From Chitinophagaceae bacterium (GTDB taxonomy: Bacteria > Bacteroidota > Bacteroidia > Chitinophagales > Chitinophagaceae), in the NCBI GenBank assembly GCA_041691395.1, contig JBEPUT010000012.1, forward strand, positions 1,575 to 65,574: DNA of 64,000 bases, given 5' to 3'. The notes beneath the pieces were generated by a model that did not search any database, was not told where the DNA came from, and saw only the letters and a program-made list of their open reading frames with translations. How positions within the stretch are numbered: the stretch's first letter is position 1; the number at the start of each line of letters is the position of its first letter. Of the stretch, positions 19,649 through 31,513 are shown one piece after another. Both the position numbers and the translations under genes were made by a program.

Positions 19649-19896
19649 AAAAAGCTTTTATGCCTGAACAGACAAAAGATCCATCCTTTCGTATGTCCAT
19701 ACAATGGCTGCATAAAAAAATACAACCCAAAGATAACCCGTTTTCATAAATAGAGGACCAAATTGTCCTCTATTTATAATCGCCATTAAAATCATGGAAA
19801 ATTCATGGCTGCGGCCCAGCGGCAGACGTGAACAGGTCATTATACAACCCCCGCAAAATGCGCCCGACTGGAATTTTTTTTCTCGATGAATCCTTC

Positions 19897-19904
19897 TACA
19901 TTTG
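19897..19904 (+). promoter_or_regulatory. -7 promoter element of tRNA-Leu
   Basis: TACATTTG matches TAnnTTTG, 7 nt before the tRNA. Confidence 0.75.
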
Positions 19905-19911
19905 CAGCCCT

Positions 19912-19995
19912 GCCCGGGTGGCGAAATTGGTAGACGCACTGTGTTCAGGTCGCAGCATCCGCAAGGTTGTGCTGGTTCGAATCCAGTCCCGGGCA
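19912..19995 (+). tRNA. tRNA-Leu(CAG)
   Basis: GCCCGGG acceptor stem, CTGTG-TTCAGGT-CGCAG anticodon arm, long variable arm and TTCGAAT T-loop. Confidence 0.97.
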
Positions 19996-20120: not shown

Positions 20121-20162
20121 ACTTTGGATTACTGTTTGTGGCATAGCCACAAACAGATATTT

Positions 20163-21257
20163 ATGACAATTGAAGAGAGACAATCTGACAATGGGAAAAA
20201 AACATATTACAGGTTTAAATGGGCGAATGGTCCAAAAGATAAAATGAGCGCTGGCGTTTTCACCTACACTAAGCCTAGGACCCAGATCGAAAAAAATCAC
20301 AACAAAGAAGCATTAACCATTCTGGAAATCAAAAGATCTCAACTCGTAATAGACAGACAATCGATAGGAACCGGATACATACCCGCGCACCGATATAAGA
20401 GCAATTTTATCGACTTCTTTGATGACTTTGTTAAAAAGAACGCCCGCGTTGGGAAACGACATCTTCATGCCAGCTTCGTGCACTTCAAAGAATTCGTAAA
20501 GAAACAATCATTACCACCGCTCGAGGTCACCGAAGAATTCTGCACGCGATTCAGAAATTATCTATTAGACAAATTCAACGGCGACACCCCAATGAACTAT
20601 TTCTCGGAATTTAAGCGCATGATAAAGGCGGCCACGAAACAGGGCTATTTCCGCAACAGTCCAGCCGAAGATGTTAAAGCCAAGACCGGCAAAAATCGAA
20701 AATTAAAAGAAAACCTCGAAGTGAAAGAGTACCTCAGCTTATTAAATACACCGTGCCTGAATGAAGAAGTAAGGGAAGCGTTCATTTTCTGCTGCTACAC
20801 AGGACTAAGGTGGATAGATGTAAACCTGTTAACCTGGAAAGATATCGGCAGGGACACCATTAAAACCAGGTTGATTCAGGCGAAGACGGGCCAACCCGTC
20901 GTTATCACGATGCATCCAATTGCCCAGGCGATTGTCGAAAAACGACATTTAAGGCTAATAGAATCCGGGTTAGAAGAACGGATCTTCAGGCTTCCCAGCG
21001 CAGACGGAGCAAATAAACTTTTAAAAAGCTGGGTAAACTCCGCATCGATCACCAAAAAGATAACCTGGAGTGTAGCCAGACTCAGCTTTTCCATACTTCT
21101 TCAGGATGAAAGCGTAGATACTGCGACGGTGGCGCTGCTACTCGGCCACAGGACAACAAAGTATGTCAACGACACCTACAAGCGTCACCGCCCCAAGGAT
21201 CAAACAGCAATAATCGCCAAATTGCCGTCACCTGAAAAGACACCCGACGTGGCCTGA
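20163..21257 (+). CDS. Tyrosine integrase
   Basis: FIFCCYTGLRW (Arg I), QAKTG (Lys), WSVARLSF (variant HxxR), LGH and a downstream Tyr. Start at ATG 20163. Confidence 0.92.
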   Translation: MTIEERQSDNGKKTYYRFKWANGPKDKMSAGVFTYTKPRTQIEKNHNKEALTILEIKRSQLVIDRQSIGTGYIPAHRYKSNFIDFFDDFVKKNARVGKRHLHASFVHFKEFVKKQSLPPLEVTEEFCTRFRNYLLDKFNGDTPMNYFSEFKRMIKAATKQGYFRNSPAEDVKAKTGKNRKLKENLEVKEYLSLLNTPCLNEEVREAFIFCCYTGLRWIDVNLLTWKDIGRDTIKTRLIQAKTGQPVVITMHPIAQAIVEKRHLRLIESGLEERIFRLPSADGANKLLKSWVNSASITKKITWSVARLSFSILLQDESVDTATVALLLGHRTTKYVNDTYKRHRPKDQTAIIAKLPSPEKTPDVA

Positions 21258-21537: not shown

Positions 21538-23502
21538 TTACCTTGGTGCCTTCATGGACAAGCGTTGGATTTCAGCATCGATCAATTCAGATATATCGGC
21601 CTTAATTCTAAAATAATTGTCCGTGATTTTACCAGGATCAATAGCTTTCCCCTGCGGCATTTGGTGCGATCTTCCTCTTTTCTCCTTCATGGAACCATGC
21701 CCCAAATCAATCTCACAATGAAAGCATTTAAGCTTTATCTTTTGATTGGGGTCGTCCGCAACCATCCCGACAAATTCACCAGAAGAAAGGGAAGCAATTT
21801 TGGATTGGGGTATCGCAAAATCCATCTGTGTCGACCTGCTGACAGAAGTATCCGTTCGGTTGATGGTCATACTGTTTTTAAGTTGGCTAATCTTGCCAAA
21901 CCGGTCAGCCAACACTTTAGCAGTCTCCCCCATGACCTGACCGGAAATGATATTTCCCGTAATATTCATAATGACAGACGCCTGGTCGCTTCCATAATCC
22001 TTTTTCAGCTGACTAAAATCCTGCATTCCGAGGCAGGCTGCGACCTTATTGGATCTGGCAGTGGCAATTAAATTATCAATCCCATTCAGAAATATCGTCG
22101 GAAACTCATCAAAGACGAGGCTGCATTTATGCTTGTTTTTTTGATTGACCATTTTGACAAGCCGGTTAACATAGAGCGAAAGGACCGGCCCGAAGGTCTG
22201 TTGCTTTTGCGGGTTATTAGCTAAACACAGCACTTTGGGTGATTCGGGGTTGTTAATGTCCAGGGTGAAATCGTTGCCCGATAAAACCCAATACAACTGA
22301 GGTGAAGAAAGCCTTGCCATACCAATTTTCGCGCTGGCGATCTGGCCTTCCAACTGTTCCATGGCGTCATTCTGGTAAGCTGAGATAAAAGGGTTGATCA
22401 TCACCTCAATTTCCGGTTCAGTTTTCAGCACTGGAAAGAGGTTTTCATAATCCACCTGCATTAATTCAATAACATGCGGAAGCGTACAAAACTTGCCATT
22501 CATGTATTTCCGAAGAAACCAAATTACAGCAGTCACAAAGTTGATCGGTGACTCGACAAAAAAATCGCCTTGTTTTGTAATCCATTCCCGATTTAACCCT
22601 AGTAGAATTGATCTGGAGGATTCAATGGCATCCGTTATATCAATCATACTCGCAGGATCAAGGGGGTTGCATCTGTCGCTCTGTGAGGGGTCATCCAGGT
22701 TTATCCGACAAAATATCGGCGCGACAAGGAAAGAAGTCGCATCTCGTTGCAATGCATTAAAGGCTATCCCGGACAAATCCGGATATTTAAAATCATAAAC
22801 CAACATAGTAAACCCCTTAGCGATATGCTGTTTTATCAACCTTTGAATTACAAAATAGGACTTACCCGAACCAGGAGAACCAATGACCAGCAAACCTCGA
22901 AAGGGATTGATGATATTAATCCAGCTCCTCCGAACTTTTCCTTTAAGACTATATAGTGCAGGCAGATTAACAGAATAGGCATTGGTCAGCAACCGTTCTT
23001 CCTGAGGAAATGTTTCATTCAGTTCATTAAAAACGTCCAGTCCAAGTTCTATCCTAACCAGGCGCGATAATCTTGATCCCCCAGCAAGGACGAGAAGATA
23101 ACCAAGCGTAGTCAGGCTGATATATGTAATGCAAAGGGATTGCTCGCTGGCATCAATATCTAGGCATAGGCCAGCCGAAAAGTAGGTAACTAATCCGGCA
23201 CCCAGAAGCCAAACAATAGACCGCCTCCTGGTTTTCCCGTCCTTCCGCCCCTGACCACCGATTAGAGAAACGATTAACAAACCCAAAGAAAGAAGCTTCG
23301 CATGGTTACGCTCAAATAGCCCGGTCCGTGCAATATTCCACAAGAATCGATTTGTAATGGGGTTTGTAAATCCCCAATCCGCAAACGCATCATAACAGAA
23401 ATAATAGAAATGGAGAAGCAATAAAACTATACTGCCCATCCTTGTAAATTCGAGGACTTTTTCCAGCCCCACAGCATTTTCTCCTGTCCCACTTGCCATC
23501 AC
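21538..23502 (-). CDS. mobC: Type IV coupling protein, Bacteroidota MobC (YWFCY domain plus TraG/VirD4 ATPase)
   Basis: FYYFCY motif, Walker A GSPGSGKS, Walker B LVFDEFPT and ARSNKVA. Confidence 0.92.
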   Translation of the reverse strand: MMASGTGENAVGLEKVLEFTRMGSIVLLLLHFYYFCYDAFADWGFTNPITNRFLWNIARTGLFERNHAKLLSLGLLIVSLIGGQGRKDGKTRRRSIVWLLGAGLVTYFSAGLCLDIDASEQSLCITYISLTTLGYLLVLAGGSRLSRLVRIELGLDVFNELNETFPQEERLLTNAYSVNLPALYSLKGKVRRSWINIINPFRGLLVIGSPGSGKSYFVIQRLIKQHIAKGFTMLVYDFKYPDLSGIAFNALQRDATSFLVAPIFCRINLDDPSQSDRCNPLDPASMIDITDAIESSRSILLGLNREWITKQGDFFVESPINFVTAVIWFLRKYMNGKFCTLPHVIELMQVDYENLFPVLKTEPEIEVMINPFISAYQNDAMEQLEGQIASAKIGMARLSSPQLYWVLSGNDFTLDINNPESPKVLCLANNPQKQQTFGPVLSLYVNRLVKMVNQKNKHKCSLVFDEFPTIFLNGIDNLIATARSNKVAACLGMQDFSQLKKDYGSDQASVIMNITGNIISGQVMGETAKVLADRFGKISQLKNSMTINRTDTSVSRSTQMDFAIPQSKIASLSSGEFVGMVADDPNQKIKLKCFHCEIDLGHGSMKEKRGRSHQMPQGKAIDPGKITDNYFRIKADISELIDAEIQRLSMKAPR

Positions 23503-23514
23503 ACCTCATTTTAA

Positions 23515-24798
23515 TTATCTATTCAATTTTCGCTTCTTCTTCTTCCTTTTTGCCTTTAGCGCGTGCGGCGGAAGCGCATTCATTCCCTCATTCTTCAACA
23601 ATTGTTCAACCAACGAAGCGGCGAAGATTTTCTTCTCCAGTATATTTCCGGGTAGCGTGCGATCCTTGACGTTTACCAGCTGTTTAGGCCGCTCCCACCG
23701 CTGGCAATCGTTGGCAGATTCGCGCGCTTTTACCATTTCATTTAAAACCGCTAGCTTGCTTACCAAACTTCCTATGCTATATTGTTTACCCAACTCACTT
23801 CCATTAAACACTGCCTTAGTCCGGTGATCGACAAACGTCACTCCGTAAGGCAGACCGTTGACATTTCGCCGGATGATCGTCGAGATTTCTTTTGCCGACA
23901 ATCCCTCAATCAGTTGGTCTATCGTTATCTTACCCAAATTCAACTCTTCATCAATCGCCGCTTTCAATGCCAAGCGGTTGGGAAGGCGTTTGCTGACATT
24001 TTTCCGAAATTTACTCTCCAGATTCCGCAGCGTGGGTTGACTATAAATGGAACTGGCTTTAATCGGTACACCCATTTTATTGCCGTGTGAATCAATAATA
24101 TGGTAAACCAGTCCACCATGCGAATGAATTCTCCCGCCCATACGACCAGCGTCGGCCATAATGTTGTAACTATTCAAAACGGCATTGAAGGAGGGCAGCG
24201 ACGTGTATTTATATTGTTCCATCACTTGATCGAGCACGTTAGTAATGGACCTTTTCGTTTCGGACTTGCCGTATTGGATGGAGTCCGGAATCAGCAAATC
24301 GGGCTGCAATATACTCTTCGAAGCGCCCGACCCAGCCCTCATTAAACCAAATTCGATCTCGATTTCCTTTCTGGCAAACTCAGATTGGTTTCTTCCGATG
24401 TTAAAAGTATCGATTCGACTTCCGTCCGAGGTTATGGTCGTCGTGACAATATGGATATGGGGGTGGGCGGCATCTGTGTGTCGGTACACCAGAAACGGCT
24501 GGAGGCCAAATCCGATTTTTTCCATGTATCGGCCTGCAATTACAGAAAGCGTGTTTTCATCTAATTTTTCGGAAGGATCAAAATTCAGGGAGATATGGAG
24601 GACATTGCTTTTTTTCGACCGGTCGTTTAGGGAAATTAGGTTCTGAAATCTGCTCAGTTTATCGTAGAAATTAAGGTCGGCCAAATCCTGCAGATAATTT
24701 CCAGCAGCTATACAATACGCGTTGCCATTTAATACCTTCTGTTCATTGTAATTCAGTGCGCGCTTGATGCTATGCGGGCTCGTTATTTTTGCAACCAT
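23515..24798 (-). CDS. mobB: MOBP-type relaxase (Bacteroidota MobB)
   Basis: Motif I YNEQKV, motif II HISLNFDPSE and HUH motif HTDAAHPHIHIVT. Confidence 0.92.
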   Translation of the reverse strand: MVAKITSPHSIKRALNYNEQKVLNGNAYCIAAGNYLQDLADLNFYDKLSRFQNLISLNDRSKKSNVLHISLNFDPSEKLDENTLSVIAGRYMEKIGFGLQPFLVYRHTDAAHPHIHIVTTTITSDGSRIDTFNIGRNQSEFARKEIEIEFGLMRAGSGASKSILQPDLLIPDSIQYGKSETKRSITNVLDQVMEQYKYTSLPSFNAVLNSYNIMADAGRMGGRIHSHGGLVYHIIDSHGNKMGVPIKASSIYSQPTLRNLESKFRKNVSKRLPNRLALKAAIDEELNLGKITIDQLIEGLSAKEISTIIRRNVNGLPYGVTFVDHRTKAVFNGSELGKQYSIGSLVSKLAVLNEMVKARESANDCQRWERPKQLVNVKDRTLPGNILEKKIFAASLVEQLLKNEGMNALPPHALKAKRKKKKRKLNR

Positions 24799-25184
24799 AA
24801 TTGATGGATTTGATTCATGCGATACTTGATTTCATCAACTTTATTCAAGAAAGACCGGTGCGTCGACTCATAGAGAAAAACCCAGGATCTCATTTGGGGT
24901 ACGGTATCCAGTGTGTGCAAGCGTTTTACCGCCTGATTGAAATTGTTACCGATAGCTGACAACTCGTTCTTTAGCAGTAGCATTTCCGCTAGGAATGCAT
25001 CAGCTGATTCGTTCCGGTATTTGACGGTCACTGGGTGAGCCAACATCATTTTCCGTGCATATTCACTGAGATTTCTGCAGGTTGTATGCTGAAACTTCGT
25101 ATAGATCTCCTTATACTCCTCCGGCTTGACCCGAAAGTTTATCCACTCTTTAGCACTGTCACTTTTTTCATTCATTGGCCTCAA
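24783..25184 (-). CDS. Relaxosome accessory ribbon-helix-helix protein (MobA/MobC type)
   Basis: INFRVKPEEY, LSEYARKM and ELSAIGNNFNQAVKRLH. Overlaps the relaxase start. Confidence 0.88.
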   Translation of the reverse strand: MRPMNEKSDSAKEWINFRVKPEEYKEIYTKFQHTTCRNLSEYARKMMLAHPVTVKYRNESADAFLAEMLLLKNELSAIGNNFNQAVKRLHTLDTVPQMRSWVFLYESTHRSFLNKVDEIKYRMNQIHQLWLQK

Positions 25185-25265: not shown

Positions 25266-25310
25266 CAATTGTGCAACAATTGAACATCTCGCCCGTTGCA
25301 AATCCGGCAA
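25266..25310 (+). other. Candidate oriT with MOBP-type nic site
   Basis: Inverted repeat CAATTG-TGCAA-CAATTG (25266-25282) followed by ACATCTCG^CCCG. This resembles RP4 CTATCCTG^CCCG and lies upstream of the relaxosome genes. Confidence 0.65.
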
Positions 25311-25504: not shown

Positions 25505-25984
25505 TTACATGAGCCCCTGATCAGCGAAAGAGAAAAACCCCTCGTCATTGAGGATTAGGTGGTCCAACACCTTAATGTCGTGAAGACCAGCAGCCAGTCC
25601 AATTTTCCGGGTGAGATCTTCATCCGAACGGCTTGGTTTCAAATTGCCGGAAGGATGATTGTGAGCAAGGATGAGGCTACAAGCAAGCACCTCCAAGGCA
25701 GCTGCCAGGATAATCCTTGGATCGGCAACCGTACCGGTGACTCCCCCGGTCGAAACCTCAAAAAGCCCTATCACCTTGTTTGCCTGGTTTAAAAACAAGA
25801 CCTTAAATTCTTCGACGAGTCCAATCCTACCCTCATCCCAAAGCGTTCTGAATATGTTGTGTGAATCTTCGGAACACCTAATCAGAATTCGCTCTGAAGC
25901 TTTCACCTGGGAAATATATACCAACTTAACTTTTGCTACCTGATTCAGGATCAAAGCTCTCATTTCATTTTCCATAACATCCAT
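25505..25984 (-). CDS. radC: RadC-like JAB domain protein
   Basis: EEFKVLFLN, GGVTGTVADPR, LAHNHPSGNLKPSRSD and VLDHLIL motifs. Confidence 0.93.
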   Translation of the reverse strand: MDVMENEMRALILNQVAKVKLVYISQVKASERILIRCSEDSHNIFRTLWDEGRIGLVEEFKVLFLNQANKVIGLFEVSTGGVTGTVADPRIILAAALEVLACSLILAHNHPSGNLKPSRSDEDLTRKIGLAAGLHDIKVLDHLILNDEGFFSFADQGLM

Positions 25985-26019
25985 TTAAATAAGTTAAATA
26001 ATTAATTATGGAACCGTTA

Positions 26020-26127
26020 TCGGCTTGACGACGAGTAAGACCAAACAGGAAGGCGAAATAAATAATGGCCTGCGCGTGGGAACTGTGTTTGTTTCGCCGG
26101 TTTGGGCGCCCGACGCGTCAAAGCCGA
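26020..26127 (+). promoter_or_regulatory. Long interrupted stem-loop upstream of radC (candidate ssDNA promoter)
   Basis: Nested stems 26020-26030/26116-26127, 26041-26046/26100-26105 and 26052-26064/26086-26098. The last is 13 bp with two G-T wobbles on the + strand. Confidence 0.5.
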
Positions 26128-26206
26128 ACTTTGTAAAATAATTGATATGCACAACGCAGTTTTCAGTTTTTCCAGTAGCTCGATTTACGACCGGCTTGCC
26201 AAAACC

Positions 26207-26232
26207 AAGCTGCCGTCCGGGGACGGCAGCTT
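26207..26232 (-). terminator. Terminator-like hairpin after the ParB-like gene
   Basis: Perfect 12-bp stem AAGCTGCCGTCC/GGACGGCAGCTT. Confidence 0.65.
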
Positions 26233-28358: not shown

Positions 28359-28760
28359 TTAAAATGGAAGGTCTTCGGCAGTTATCTGAGTTGCGGCTTT
28401 CGTCAAAAGTGCCTCGGATTCGTCGGCGGGCTCACTTGTTCCGTTTGCCTTTGGCCGGTCACCCAGTTTGACATTATTGACATGGAAAGTCAGATTGGCC
28501 CTGGCCTCACCGGCTCCATTGGTATATGCATTCACGCCAATGGTTCCGAAAAGTTCCACCTGACGGCCTTTGGTCAGGTAAGGCGCAACGCCGATTGCCT
28601 GCCAGTAAGAACAGTTTACGAAGATTGTTTGCTGTTTTACTTCCTGTGATTCTTTCGATTTATAACTATTATTGATCGCAATACTGAATTGTACGACTTT
28701 GCGTCCATCGGGTAATTCCTTTACTATTGCATCTGCTGTTAAACGTCCAACGAGTTCCAT
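28359..28760 (-). CDS. ssb: Single-stranded DNA-binding protein with acidic DLPF tail
   Basis: LVGRLTADA OB-fold start, YLTKGRQV and C-terminal EDLPF. Confidence 0.9.
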   Translation of the reverse strand: MELVGRLTADAIVKELPDGRKVVQFSIAINNSYKSKESQEVKQQTIFVNCSYWQAIGVAPYLTKGRQVELFGTIGVNAYTNGAGEARANLTFHVNNVKLGDRPKANGTSEPADESEALLTKAATQITAEDLPF

Positions 28761-28900
28761 AAAATGATAATTTAAAATTTGACTAATTGATTGAAAAATG
28801 AAAATCTGAAGACTGCGCAGGGGGAGACCGGGAAGAAGTTGTCATGTTGAAATTTTGATGATCGAAAAAAACAGGTTTGAAAAAGAAAAAAGGGAAAAAA

Positions 28901-29037
28901 AGAAAGCAAACCCTAAGCTGCCAGGGCTTGGGCAGACACCAAAAGGAAACGGAATAAAGTCCGCAAAGCGGTGCCTGAAAGGCATTTGTGCCGTAGTCTT
29001 TTGGTTTGTGAAACGGCAGGCAGCTAAATTGCTTTCT
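28901..29037. promoter_or_regulatory. Multi-branched stem-loop upstream of ssb (candidate ssDNA promoter or structured RNA)
   Basis: Nested perfect stems 28901-28909/29029-29037 (9 bp), 28916-28922/29019-29025 (7 bp) and 28938-28945/28998-29005 (8 bp). Inner hairpins CCGC-AAA-GCGG and TGCC-TGAAA-GGCA. Confidence 0.55.
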
Positions 29038-29119
29038 CTTTTGCCACCCGTTTTCGGTTCAAGCCTGAATATTGCCCGTAGTTAGGTCTGTTCCACTGAG
29101 ATAATTTTTTTGACCTGCA

Positions 29120-29476
29120 TTAGAATAGGAAGACGTCCTCGATTAAATAAAACTGTGGAGTCGGCGAAGCCAAAAGGATAGATAAGACCAAATAAATAAT
29201 TTGTTTTTTCCCAGGGTGCGATCGTAAATAAGCCATAGATGCCCGCCGGATATTCAACCATTTCTTTCGCGTTATCTTTTGTTCCGGGTAACCATATCTA
29301 ATGGAGTGTCCGGTTTTAACCTCAATGAAATAAAGCACGCCCTCCTTGGCTGCGATTAGGTCAATTTCCAAATGGCCGGTACGCCAGTTCTGTTCCATTA
29401 TCTGGTAGCCCTGATTCTTAAACCAGGATAGCGCAAGCACTTCTCCTGACCGGCCGGTTTCGTTATGTCTTGCCAT
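29120..29476 (-). CDS. yraN: YraN-family PD-(D/E)XK nuclease
   Basis: G..GE..A...GY.I...NWR...EIDLIA....FIEVKT. Start at ATG 29476. Confidence 0.85.
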   Translation of the reverse strand: MARHNETGRSGEVLALSWFKNQGYQIMEQNWRTGHLEIDLIAAKEGVLYFIEVKTGHSIRYGYPEQKITRKKWLNIRRASMAYLRSHPGKKQIIYLVLSILLASPTPQFYLIEDVFLF

Positions 29477-29554
29477 TAGAATCCCCTCCTTGCCCAACCC
29501 GAATGTCTCGTGGTGATTCGAATCAAAAAGGATTTGTCTGAGACAAAATCCGCA

Positions 29555-31156
29555 CTATTCATAAAATTGTTTTTTATTTTGGGGAATATTCATGGCAACA
29601 ACCTTCTTGGCTCTAGTCCCTGCGTGGATGGAAAGCGGTCTGTCCAGGCTTCGGAAATGAAGCGCTTCGGCAACGTGCGGCAGATCAACGATGACACTTC
29701 CAGCCAGGTCAGCAATTGTCCGGGAGAGTTTGAGGACTCGGCTGTAAGATCTCGCTGACATTTGCAAAACATCTATCTGTCTGAGTAGAAAAGCCTTAGT
29801 CTCTTGTTCCATCTGACAGGCTTTTTCAATTATTTTGTCTGGCATTTGGGCATTATTGTAAATGCCCGGGTAGAATCGAAGACGTCTGGATTGAATCGCG
29901 CGCGCCTTGATCACCCGCTGGCGTACCAAGTATGAGGACTCCGGCCGGCCAGGCTGCTCCACGATCTCAAAACCGGAAAGCGGGTCAACCTCTATGTGCA
30001 GATCTATCCTTTCTAGCAATGGGCCGGATATTTTCCGTCGATACCAGTAGAGCGCTGTCTTGTTGCAGGTGCAGGTCCGGGTGGGATGTCCAAAGTACCC
30101 GCAAATGCATGGATTCATGGCTGCCAGCAGGATGAATGACGCCGGAAATTCAACAGATAATTTCGCTCGGGAAATCAAAACCTTTCGGTCTTCCAGGGGT
30201 TGACGCATCACCTCGATGGTGCTCCTTCTGAATTCCGGTAACTCGTCAAGAAATAATACCCCATTATGGGCTAGACTGATTTCCCCCGGCAGTGGCATAC
30301 TGCCTCCTCCGGCGAGGGCAACGTCGCTCATGGTATGATGCGGATTTCGGAATGGCCGGTCCCGAATGAGTCCGGTAAGCGGTTTCCCGGTGTTTATCAC
30401 ACTATAGATGCGGCTGGTCTCCAGTGACTCAGCTACCGTCATCGGTGGGAGGATCGAAGGCATCCTTTTGGCCAGCATCGTTTTACCAGATCCTGGAGGG
30501 CCTATAAGCAGTGCATTGTGTCCACCCGCTGCGGCAATTTCAAGTGCCCGCTTTACTGGCTTTTGTCCCTTGACATCGCTGAAATCAGGACCTAGGGGAT
30601 AATACGCTTTCTTTGGCTCCATCGCGATCATGGGCGTCAACGCGATATCAGACTGGACAAATGCAATAACTTCTTGTAGCGTGCTGATGCCATAAACAGC
30701 CAATCCACTGACCAGAGTGGCTTCCGGTGCATTTGCCTTTGGCAAAATAATACCCCGAAACCCTTCCCGGCTTGCCTGATAGGCCATGCACAATGCACCC
30801 CTGACCGGAAAGATCGTCCCGTCGAGGCCTATCTCACCGATAAGCAGGTAATCGGACAATTTGCCAATATCCTGAACCTGCTCCGAAGCGATGAGAATGC
30901 CAAGGGCCATCGGGAGATCGAAAGCCGTTCCGGATTTCCGCAAATCCGCAGGTGCCAGGTTAATGACCAGCTTCGTGCGCGGCATTTGGAAGCCCAGTTG
31001 TTGAACCGCGATAGCGATCCTGGAGAGAGATTCTTTTATCCCGTCGTCCGCCAGCCCGGTGATACTATAGCCTATGCCGTTACCGACGCTCACCTCTATA
31101 ACAATACGAAATGCATCCAATCCATATATTGCGCCACTGTATAATTTTGCCAACAT
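29555..31156 (-). CDS. comM: YifB/ComM-family AAA+ ATPase (Mg-chelatase-like, MCM-related helicase)
   Basis: NLAPADLRKSG..FDLPMA, Walker A GPPGSGKT, LAHNGVLFLDELPEF, AAMNPC.CG, SGPLLERID and SARSY.RVLKLSRTIADL. Full length. Confidence 0.93.
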   Translation of the reverse strand: MLAKLYSGAIYGLDAFRIVIEVSVGNGIGYSITGLADDGIKESLSRIAIAVQQLGFQMPRTKLVINLAPADLRKSGTAFDLPMALGILIASEQVQDIGKLSDYLLIGEIGLDGTIFPVRGALCMAYQASREGFRGIILPKANAPEATLVSGLAVYGISTLQEVIAFVQSDIALTPMIAMEPKKAYYPLGPDFSDVKGQKPVKRALEIAAAGGHNALLIGPPGSGKTMLAKRMPSILPPMTVAESLETSRIYSVINTGKPLTGLIRDRPFRNPHHTMSDVALAGGGSMPLPGEISLAHNGVLFLDELPEFRRSTIEVMRQPLEDRKVLISRAKLSVEFPASFILLAAMNPCICGYFGHPTRTCTCNKTALYWYRRKISGPLLERIDLHIEVDPLSGFEIVEQPGRPESSYLVRQRVIKARAIQSRRLRFYPGIYNNAQMPDKIIEKACQMEQETKAFLLRQIDVLQMSARSYSRVLKLSRTIADLAGSVIVDLPHVAEALHFRSLDRPLSIHAGTRAKKVVAMNIPQNKKQFYE

Positions 31157-31180
31157 ATTTCTCTATTTTAATAATTAGAT

Positions 31181-31513
31181 TTATCTGTCCAGATCGACTA
31201 GCTGTGTTGCATGAATTTCTGTGATGGTCCGGGTTTGGCCACTTTCATCAGAAAAGGTTTTGTACCGGATAGAGCCTTCCACAAGCACATGACTTCCTTT
31301 AATAATATAGTTCTTCATTTTCTCGACAGCTGTTTTCCCCCAGATGACGACCGCATGCCATTCCGTAACTTTTTTCGGTTTGCCGTCCCGGCAGAAATAG
31401 AACCGATCAGTCGCCAGCCTTAAAACAGCGACATCCGTACCATCGCCTATCCGCTTAATAATCGGATCCTTGCCCAGGTAACCGATGAGTTGCACCTTGT
31501 TCATTGATTTCAT
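31181..31513 (-). CDS. ssb: Single-stranded DNA-binding protein lacking the acidic C-terminal tail
   Basis: MNKVQLIGYLGKDP, TEWHAVVIWG, KGSHVLVEGSI. Ends at the OB fold (LVDLDR). Confidence 0.88.
   Translation of the reverse strand: MKSMNKVQLIGYLGKDPIIKRIGDGTDVAVLRLATDRFYFCRDGKPKKVTEWHAVVIWGKTAVEKMKNYIIKGSHVLVEGSIRYKTFSDESGQTRTITEIHATQLVDLDR

Follow-up and report, generated by a model that had tools for sequence, protein, structure and literature searches.

The window analysed here is a stretch of 64,000 nucleotides from a Chitinophagaceae bacterium. In the region that concerns us all genes lie on the - strand. Read in the direction of transcription, there is an ssb gene (28359-28760, PF00436), an 82-aa ORF, the gene of a 599-aa ParB_N/HTH protein (28046-26247) with its intrinsic terminator (26207-26232, a 12-bp perfect stem), then the hairpin described below and, directly downstream of the hairpin, the gene of a RadC-like JAB protein (25505-25984; PF04002, 5.8e-35). 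After a gap of 320 nt follow the genes of a NikA/MobC-like protein and a MobA/VirD2-type relaxase (together 23515-25184, -) and of a YWFCY-TraG coupling protein (T4CP; 21538-23502, -), all assigned, like the ParB_N/HTH gene, by domain annotation. Farther along there is a tyrosine integrase gene (20124-21257), which adjoins tRNA-Leu (19912-19995). We regard this set of genes as a small integrated mobilisable element. Its annotated genes include no primase and no Rep gene, and a search for its right border, in the form of a direct repeat of 12 nt or more from the 3' end of tRNA-Leu, found none. A yraN gene, a comM-like gene and a second ssb gene (29120-31513) lie on the same strand beyond the second hairpin copy described below; no att repeat was found. 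The true start of radC is likely ATG 25975 (MEN...), and not the first ATG at 25984; the context of the former, ATTATGGAA, matches that of the homologues, and its position is equivalent to their starts.

Folded as DNA, the + strand between 26020 and 26127 forms three stems nested one inside another, in agreement with a previous reading of the locus made from the letters of the sequence (the sequence-only reading). The outer stem, P1, pairs 26020-26033 with 26114-26127. The middle stem, P3, which is seen both in the folds and in the covariation of the family, pairs 26039-26048 with 26098-26107. The inner stem, P4, pairs GCGAAATAAATA (26053-26064), for which the near-invariant family consensus is CGGAATAAAT, with TGTTTGTTTCGC (26086-26097), and is closed by a terminal loop (26065-26085) whose length ranges from about 11 to 80 nt in the family. 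P4 had been described as a stem of 13 bp (26052-26064/26086-26098) with two T-G pairs; the stem and both pairs (T26059·G26091 and T26063·G26087) are present in the fold, but the length is 12 bp. Similarly, the previously given extent of the structure, 26020-26127, covers the stems correctly but leaves out three parts of the unit: the -7 box, a symmetric 10x10 internal loop and a further helix, P0. In the window fold the two sides of the loop are GGAACCGTTA (26010-26019) and ACTTTGTAAA (26128-26137). P0 is an AT-rich helix of 9 bp, in which, in the minimum free energy structure, ATTAATTAT (26001-26009) pairs with 26138-26146.

The folding energy of the window hairpin is unremarkable (z -1.55 to -1.68; 11-16 of 200 dinucleotide shuffles fold equally well). 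Since such an energy is within chance, one sequence alone could not establish the hairpin, and we take it to be real because the structure is conserved, with covariation, among homologues.

The hairpin family and its conservation

RadC relatives were collected from 80 genome loci, with 41-57% identity over most of their length, and despite this low protein identity the DNA upstream of many of them has an architecture that matches the window hairpin. Picking by the inner stem only yielded 21 instances, and several loci had two of them, located before different genes. From the homologues we built a covariance model (R1; unit of about 150 nt) oriented antisense to the genes; a covariance model was used because MAFFT alone puts the outer stems out of register. 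R1 found 31 matches in the window and the 80 loci, with one weak match in the opposite orientation, and 31 in the genome set; over both sets the opposite orientation occurred in two weak matches only. One of the matches is a second copy in the window (28897-29047, +; 38.4 bits, E 5.4e-5, full length), which lies upstream of ssb. A reversed and degenerate copy next to an integrase gene (L007:2855-3009, +) has P1 arms that are no longer complementary, and its fold is no better than that of shuffled sequences; it is probably a remnant of recombination.

By R1, the hairpin is present in 24 of 401 genomes sampled across the phylum and in 19 of 178 genera. All 24 genomes belong to the class of the window, and many of them have two to four copies, some within a few kb. 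The taxa represented among the loci are Pedobacter, Algoriphagus, Belliella, Flavobacterium, Mucilaginibacter, Ohtaekwangia, Chitinophagaceae and uncultured Bacteroides. Most copies precede the start of a gene, to which they are always antisense, with a predicted leader of about 13-35 nt. This gene codes in most cases for RadC, and in others for SSB, ArdC (ArdcN plus zincin peptidase), DUF932, ParB_N/KorB-like, GIY-YIG or DUF6943 proteins. Leading regions of plasmids are enriched in SSB and anti-defence genes oriented for transcription from the T-strand (PMC11541004), and the genes found behind the hairpins are typical of leading regions.

The family did not surface in searches that relied on known RNA motifs or on primary sequence. 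When Rfam, including the radC RNA motif, was searched with cmscan, the region of the window had no match at E <= 10, and the motif in five loci with canonical members had none at E <= 1. A canonical member had no blastn match (word size 11) among the 72,556 plasmids of PLSDB, and single-sequence nhmmer with the intergenic region retrieved three weak relatives only. In a search for RNA-seq runs, the runs that contained the hairpin sequence were metagenome DNA only.

The sequence-only reading had proposed covariation across homologous radC upstream regions as a check on the hairpin, and such covariation was found. In an alignment of the 31 genome hits by R1, an alignment that is fitted to the model, standard pairs occupy 81.6% of the pair cells, compared with 66.0% in column shuffles and 37-50% when the partners are slid by 1-3 columns. 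Both sides have changed in 29 of the 39 pairs, and the covariation score was 0.335, a value attained by none of 500 shuffles, versus 0.128. In P0 (helix 1 of the family) 7 of 7 pairs co-vary and 87% of the cells are paired, while in P1 (helix 2) both sides have changed in 8 of 8 pairs. The sequences of P0, P1 and P2 thus vary freely yet stay paired, and P4 (CGGAATAAAT / GTTTATGCCG) is almost invariant. These figures indicate that the structure of the hairpin is under selection. P4 sits at about -45 to -55 relative to the promoter predicted below, and its invariance suggests a conserved recognition partner. We also observed that the purine-rich loops flanking P4 share its near-invariance across genera, all other stems being variable.

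The strand on which the hairpin folds is of special interest for its function. As DNA, the - strand of the window adopts a different structure, with -18.5 kcal/mol as opposed to -22.3 kcal/mol for the + strand; the preference for the + strand noted previously thus holds for the window, and the homologues agree: calculated with DNA parameters, the antisense strand is the more stable one in 25 of 26 copies, by 4.2 kcal/mol on average. It must be noted that, as judged from shuffles, about half of this margin (approximately 2.3 kcal/mol) is compositional. The z-scores differ in the same direction (-2.51 for the antisense and -1.96 for the sense strand, p = 0.0013). G·T pairs on the antisense strand of the 26 copies number 74, versus 20. 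Among the aligned cells there are 69 G·T and 32 A·C combinations, and without two conserved wobble columns these numbers become 41 and 31, a difference that is not significant. On the whole, the evidence from energies and wobble pairs favours the antisense strand to a moderate degree.

The antisense -7 box and the predicted transferred strand

All 21 copies picked by the inner stem have a -7-like box of the form TAnnTTTG at one and the same place, right after the 3' arm of P1. The logo of this box, derived from 51 copies, is T37 A47 H H T49 T50 T36 G45, and G is found at -10/-9 in 2 of 102 cases. In most copies the box is 40-43 nt past the start of the P4 3' arm, and in about 30 of the 51 copies there is a TTG or TTTG in the P3 3' arm, 20-22 nt ahead of the box. 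The optimal spacer between the -33 and -7 elements recognised by sigma-ABfr is 19 bp, thus the spacing in the family is longer. The logo equals the -7 element of sigma-ABfr in F. johnsoniae, TAHHTTTG (T-12 A-11 T-8 T-7 T-6 G-5; PMC6847099, also PMC7366714), for which the -33 element is reported to be weak and the start site to lie 4-5 nt past the -7 box (PMC6847099). In the window copy the box GAACTTTG (26126-26133, +, antisense to radC) scores 5/6, having G instead of T at -12, and the -33-like TTTG (26101-26104) within the P3 3' arm is 21 nt ahead of it. A host example of the box is the perfect TACATTTG a few bases upstream of tRNA-Leu (approximately 19890-19911, +), and we take TAHHTTTG to be the consensus used by the host. 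Among radC loci that lack the motif, perfect -7 boxes are rare on both strands, and the pattern does not generalise to them.

The location of the box relative to the helices can be described in terms of an open complex. Over 42 copies the pairing probability does not fall below 0.7 as far as -12, whereas at -11 it is 0.21, so the end of P1 coincides with the position where melting of an open complex starts. The last pair of P1 in the window is A26127·T26020, hence -11 is paired in this copy, and -10 to -1 are open in the 10x10 loop. The first pair of P0 involves A26138, the predicted non-template +1, which is five bases past G-5 and in this respect follows the start-site rule of PMC6847099. 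The order of the elements along the 3' arm, -33 (26101-26104), -7 (26126-26133) and +1 (26138), makes the 3' arm the non-template strand; the template in the folded strand is the 5' arm together with its 5' flank. The predicted RNA would begin opposite T26009 with 5'-AUAAUUAAUU... and would continue into radC; the leader would measure 25 nt if translation starts at ATG 25984 or 34 nt if it starts at ATG 25975. In double-stranded DNA the box is directed away from radC, in the folded strand it is directed into radC. We infer that the folded + strand could rebuild a Bacteroidota sigma-A promoter pointing into the gene.

The sequence-only reading had predicted that the + strand is the one that is transferred, and a conserved motif upstream of mobC supports that prediction. 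The gap before mobC contains an oriT candidate (25266-25295, +) consisting of the inverted repeat CAATTGT-GCA-ACAATTG (25266-25282) and a nic-like sequence, AACATCTCGCC. This layout is kept upstream of mobC, antisense to the genes, in five elements (the window, L005, L006, L020 and L021), where the repeat is followed by AC(A/T)TCTnGC and its arms co-vary (CAATTGT/ACAATTG, CGGTTGT/ACAACCG, CGTTTGT/ACAAACG, AGCCG/CGGCT). An inverted repeat 5' of a nic-like ATCnnG is the oriT arrangement of RP4/MOBP, and by this likeness the nick is predicted to be on the + strand. With a nick on this strand radC would enter the recipient first, followed by the hairpin and then by parB and ssb, and the mob genes would be the last. 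At every locus where relatives of the mob genes of the window were detected, the hairpin is antisense to the mobC, relaxase and T4CP genes, and in most cases the mob genes are preceded by the leading genes. The resulting order, hairpin - leading genes - oriT - mobC - relaxase - T4CP, is as in F.

A candidate single-strand promoter and its alternatives

The explanation that we favour, with a probability of roughly 60%, is that the hairpin is a fold-back promoter, similar to Frpo, used by the Bacteroidota housekeeping sigma factor sigma-ABfr on single-stranded DNA. A candidate single-strand promoter had already been proposed in the sequence-only reading, and the proposal is now supported by the fold, the covariation, the prediction of the T-strand and the geometry of the antisense sigma-A box. 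Binding of RNA polymerase, the start site, the dependence on single-stranded DNA and zygotic induction are what we infer from these features. The element would be nicked at oriT (around 25291) and its + strand would enter the recipient with the 5' end first. radC would arrive as antisense DNA with the hairpin next, and the strand would then fold. P1-P3 would rebuild a duplex carrying the -33 TTTG, with the -7 box at the foot of P1; T or G at -12 and, in the window copy, A-11 would be paired, -10 to -1 would be open, and the AT-rich P0 would provide the downstream duplex from +1. Such a fold would mimic the open complex of RNA polymerase, the 3' arm serving as non-template and the 5' arm as template strand, and transcription could proceed from about 26009 leftwards across radC, producing a leader of 25-34 nt. 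The second copy would act likewise for ssb-orf82-parB. Synthesis of the second strand would remove the fold, leaving a box that faces away from the gene. It is possible that the transcript additionally primes synthesis of the complementary strand.

A second structure, which we call H0, is attached to the hairpin. In nearly all copies, sense-strand bases located at the predicted transcription start and immediately 5' of it pair with the start-codon region; in the window, folding of the - strand (25970-26013) pairs TTCCATAA (26013-26006) with TTATGGAA (25977-25970), which contains ATG. The arms of H0 track the first codons of the different genes, e.g. TTCCAT/ATGGAA in radC, CTTCAT/ATGAAG in ardC and GTACCAT/ATGGTAC in another radC copy, and some of the pairs, read on the sense strand, are G·U. 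Apart from the window, examples were seen at L060:4724, L016:4712, L038 and L118. In naked single-stranded DNA the complement of H0 competes, according to folding, with P0, which is marginal in the window.

The existence of H0 is the best argument for a different explanation, namely that the hairpin belongs to the 5' UTR of the radC mRNA and controls translation by the choice between P0 closure and H0 pairing. The start codon is paired in nearly all members, H0 co-varies with the first codons of different genes and includes sense-strand G·U pairs; moreover, the - strand folded as RNA takes nearly the same fold as + strand DNA, and the z-scores on the sense strand are just slightly weaker. On the other hand, just 2 of 46 copies have a perfect sense-strand box in the 150 nt ahead of the hairpin, as compared with 19 of 46 that have a perfect box at the fixed antisense position (the background in the genome is 0.23 per kb per strand). 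In the window there is a strong terminator approximately 60 nt upstream of the hairpin unit and no box in between. The wobble bias is towards the antisense strand, there is no match in Rfam, and an RNA leader leaves unexplained the box on the opposite strand, the avoidance of G at -10/-9, the TTG at -33 and the junction at -12/-11. For these reasons we think that an RNA leader is an unlikely explanation, albeit the least unlikely of the alternatives.

H0 can be accommodated by the single-strand promoter as well. In H0 the G/C half of the 5' arm would be missing from the predicted +1 transcript, and a read-through transcript has the whole arm, thus H0 may block the translation of read-through transcripts and limit translation to RNA initiated at the hairpin. 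IS10 offers a parallel: in fold-back inhibition, the translation start of read-through transcripts is paired with sequence that lies just ahead of the start site proper to the element. The layout is the same in the two cases, so only properly started transcripts would be translated. They differ in that IS10 has a transposase gene with a double-stranded DNA promoter, and here the proper start would be a putative single-strand promoter.

The hairpin could also be mainly an RNA-polymerase-dependent single-strand origin, i.e. a priming site whose effect on gene expression is incidental. Its architecture would be identical, a promoter-like hairpin on the transferred strand, no primase is annotated in the element, and Frpo itself primes DNA synthesis (PMC9849209, PMC12672017). 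A pure origin does not, however, need a fixed distance from a gene or several copies, and the unit is found at a fixed short distance from the start codon (leader of about 13-35 nt), in two to four copies per element, each before a leading gene, and coupled to the start-codon fold-back H0; these features count against priming as the sole function. In ssoA/ssoU and in the minus origin of M13/f1 a hairpin presents promoter-like boxes to the host RNA polymerase in one orientation of single-stranded DNA. The product of these origins is a short primer, each replicon has one of them, and their position is independent of start codons, unlike that of the hairpin of the window element, of which there are two copies, with up to four matches per genome, most of them before a gene start. 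An RNA-polymerase-dependent sso is a single-copy, non-coding part of a rolling-circle replicon; in the window element no Rep gene was seen. A role limited to priming is in our opinion improbable, slightly more so than the RNA leader.

Still less credible is an ordinary promoter on the + strand of double-stranded DNA, which would make a divergent or antisense transcript and in which the inverted repeat would be an operator or incidental. The box and the TTG do amount to a regular promoter that is directed away from radC, and in 12 of 46 copies an ORF of at least 90 aa starts within 350 nt in that direction. But in 28 of 46 copies what follows in that direction is the 3' end of a co-directional gene, and an ORF of 90 aa or more is absent, conservation ends at P0, compensatory changes over about 130 nt of variable stems require a single-stranded molecule, and arms separated by loops of 11-80 nt are unlike the operator of a dimer. 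We rejected a ParB/KorB operator, since the arms co-vary and are 11-80 nt apart. An integron attC-like site was rejected because conservation is in the centre and not at the ends, the hairpin precedes genes, and an integron integrase is lacking. A terminator or attenuator was rejected as well, as the hairpin has no T-run and the terminator at 26207-26232 is a separate structure.

It is instructive to compare the putative promoter with the single-strand promoters described previously. To our knowledge, promoters of this kind have so far been shown just for sigma-70 in enterobacterial IncF/IncI plasmids. The class 1 promoters are Frpo1 and Frpo2 of the F plasmid and ssi1-3 of ColIb-P9/pESBL (Masai & Arai 1997, cited in PMC9849209 and PMC12672017), and the evidence for them comes from in vitro assays, in vivo deletions and 5' RACE (PMC9849209, PMC12672017). 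The Bacteroidota family resembles them in that the (predicted) transferred strand forms a long, imperfect hairpin, placed before ssb and establishment genes of the leading region, in having several copies per element, in the predicted rebuilding of the two boxes of the host sigma factor, by which the T-strand would become the template, and in the expected switch-off upon second-strand synthesis. It differs in lacking sequence similarity, as judged by blastn of a canonical member against PLSDB, in relying on the -33/-7 elements of sigma-ABfr and not on -35/-10, and in being shorter (about 150 nt). In addition, the -7 box is in a preformed internal loop from -11, a separate helix starts at +1, and the elements that carry the family are integrated, and mobilisable or conjugative. 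Consequently, the family appears to fall outside the Frpo/ssi homology family. Class 2 (ardA, klcA) and class 3 (M.EcoGIX) promoters of pESBL/F, with start sites confirmed by 5' RACE, illustrate that hairpin families without common ancestry can do the same job before anti-restriction genes (PMC12672017); these are enterobacterial and sigma-70 based, and have no sequence or architecture in common with the Bacteroidota family. A full-text literature search for Frpo-type promoters in Bacteroidota returned no relevant paper, and Bacteroid* is not mentioned in a survey published in Nature in 2024 (PMC11541004).

The family combines a conserved hairpin on the predicted transferred strand, host sigma elements that in the fold are directed into a gene and a position in the leading region, three of the features that characterise single-strand promoters. 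A promoter of this kind would in addition be active on single- but not on double-stranded DNA, with a short early burst in transconjugants. The working principle would be that of Frpo1/2 and ssi1-3, the novelty being the different sigma consensus and the explicit preformed bubble. We tentatively suggest, as a more speculative extension, that Bacteroidota elements possess their own, non-Frpo class of single-strand promoters, defined by a preformed open complex (duplex to -12, open from -11 to -1 with TAHHTTTG, duplex from +1), by a start-codon fold-back that limits translation of the leading genes to the transcript of the incoming strand, and by a switch through which strandedness sets both activity and direction.

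If the hairpin is a single-strand promoter, zygotic induction from the incoming strand would be a general strategy that has evolved convergently. With the model of sequence and structure one could then recognise, in Bacteroidota elements, which regions are leading and which strand is transferred, and this would open a route to their early (anti-defence) genes. The hairpin would also be a natural mimic of the open complex for studies of sigma-ABfr and a part for transient expression in genetic tools delivered by conjugation.

The copy upstream of ssb folds strongly (-38.2 kcal/mol, z -4.14). Its P0 pairs 28901-28909 with 29029-29037 and its P1 28916-28922 with 29019-29025, and a -33 TTTG is located at 29000-29003 (+). 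The -7 box, TAAATTGC (29025-29032, +), is weaker than that of the radC copy, with a consensus score of 4/6; it is mostly paired within P0, and the bubble is just 3x6 nt. The template at the predicted +1 is polypurine. Copies of the ssb type (28862-28909 (+) in the window; L101, L103, L110) have a long polypurine tract on the antisense strand, which supplies P0 with its 5' strand and is predicted to be the first stretch of template, and the mRNA leader in these copies would be about 140 nt long and pyrimidine-rich.
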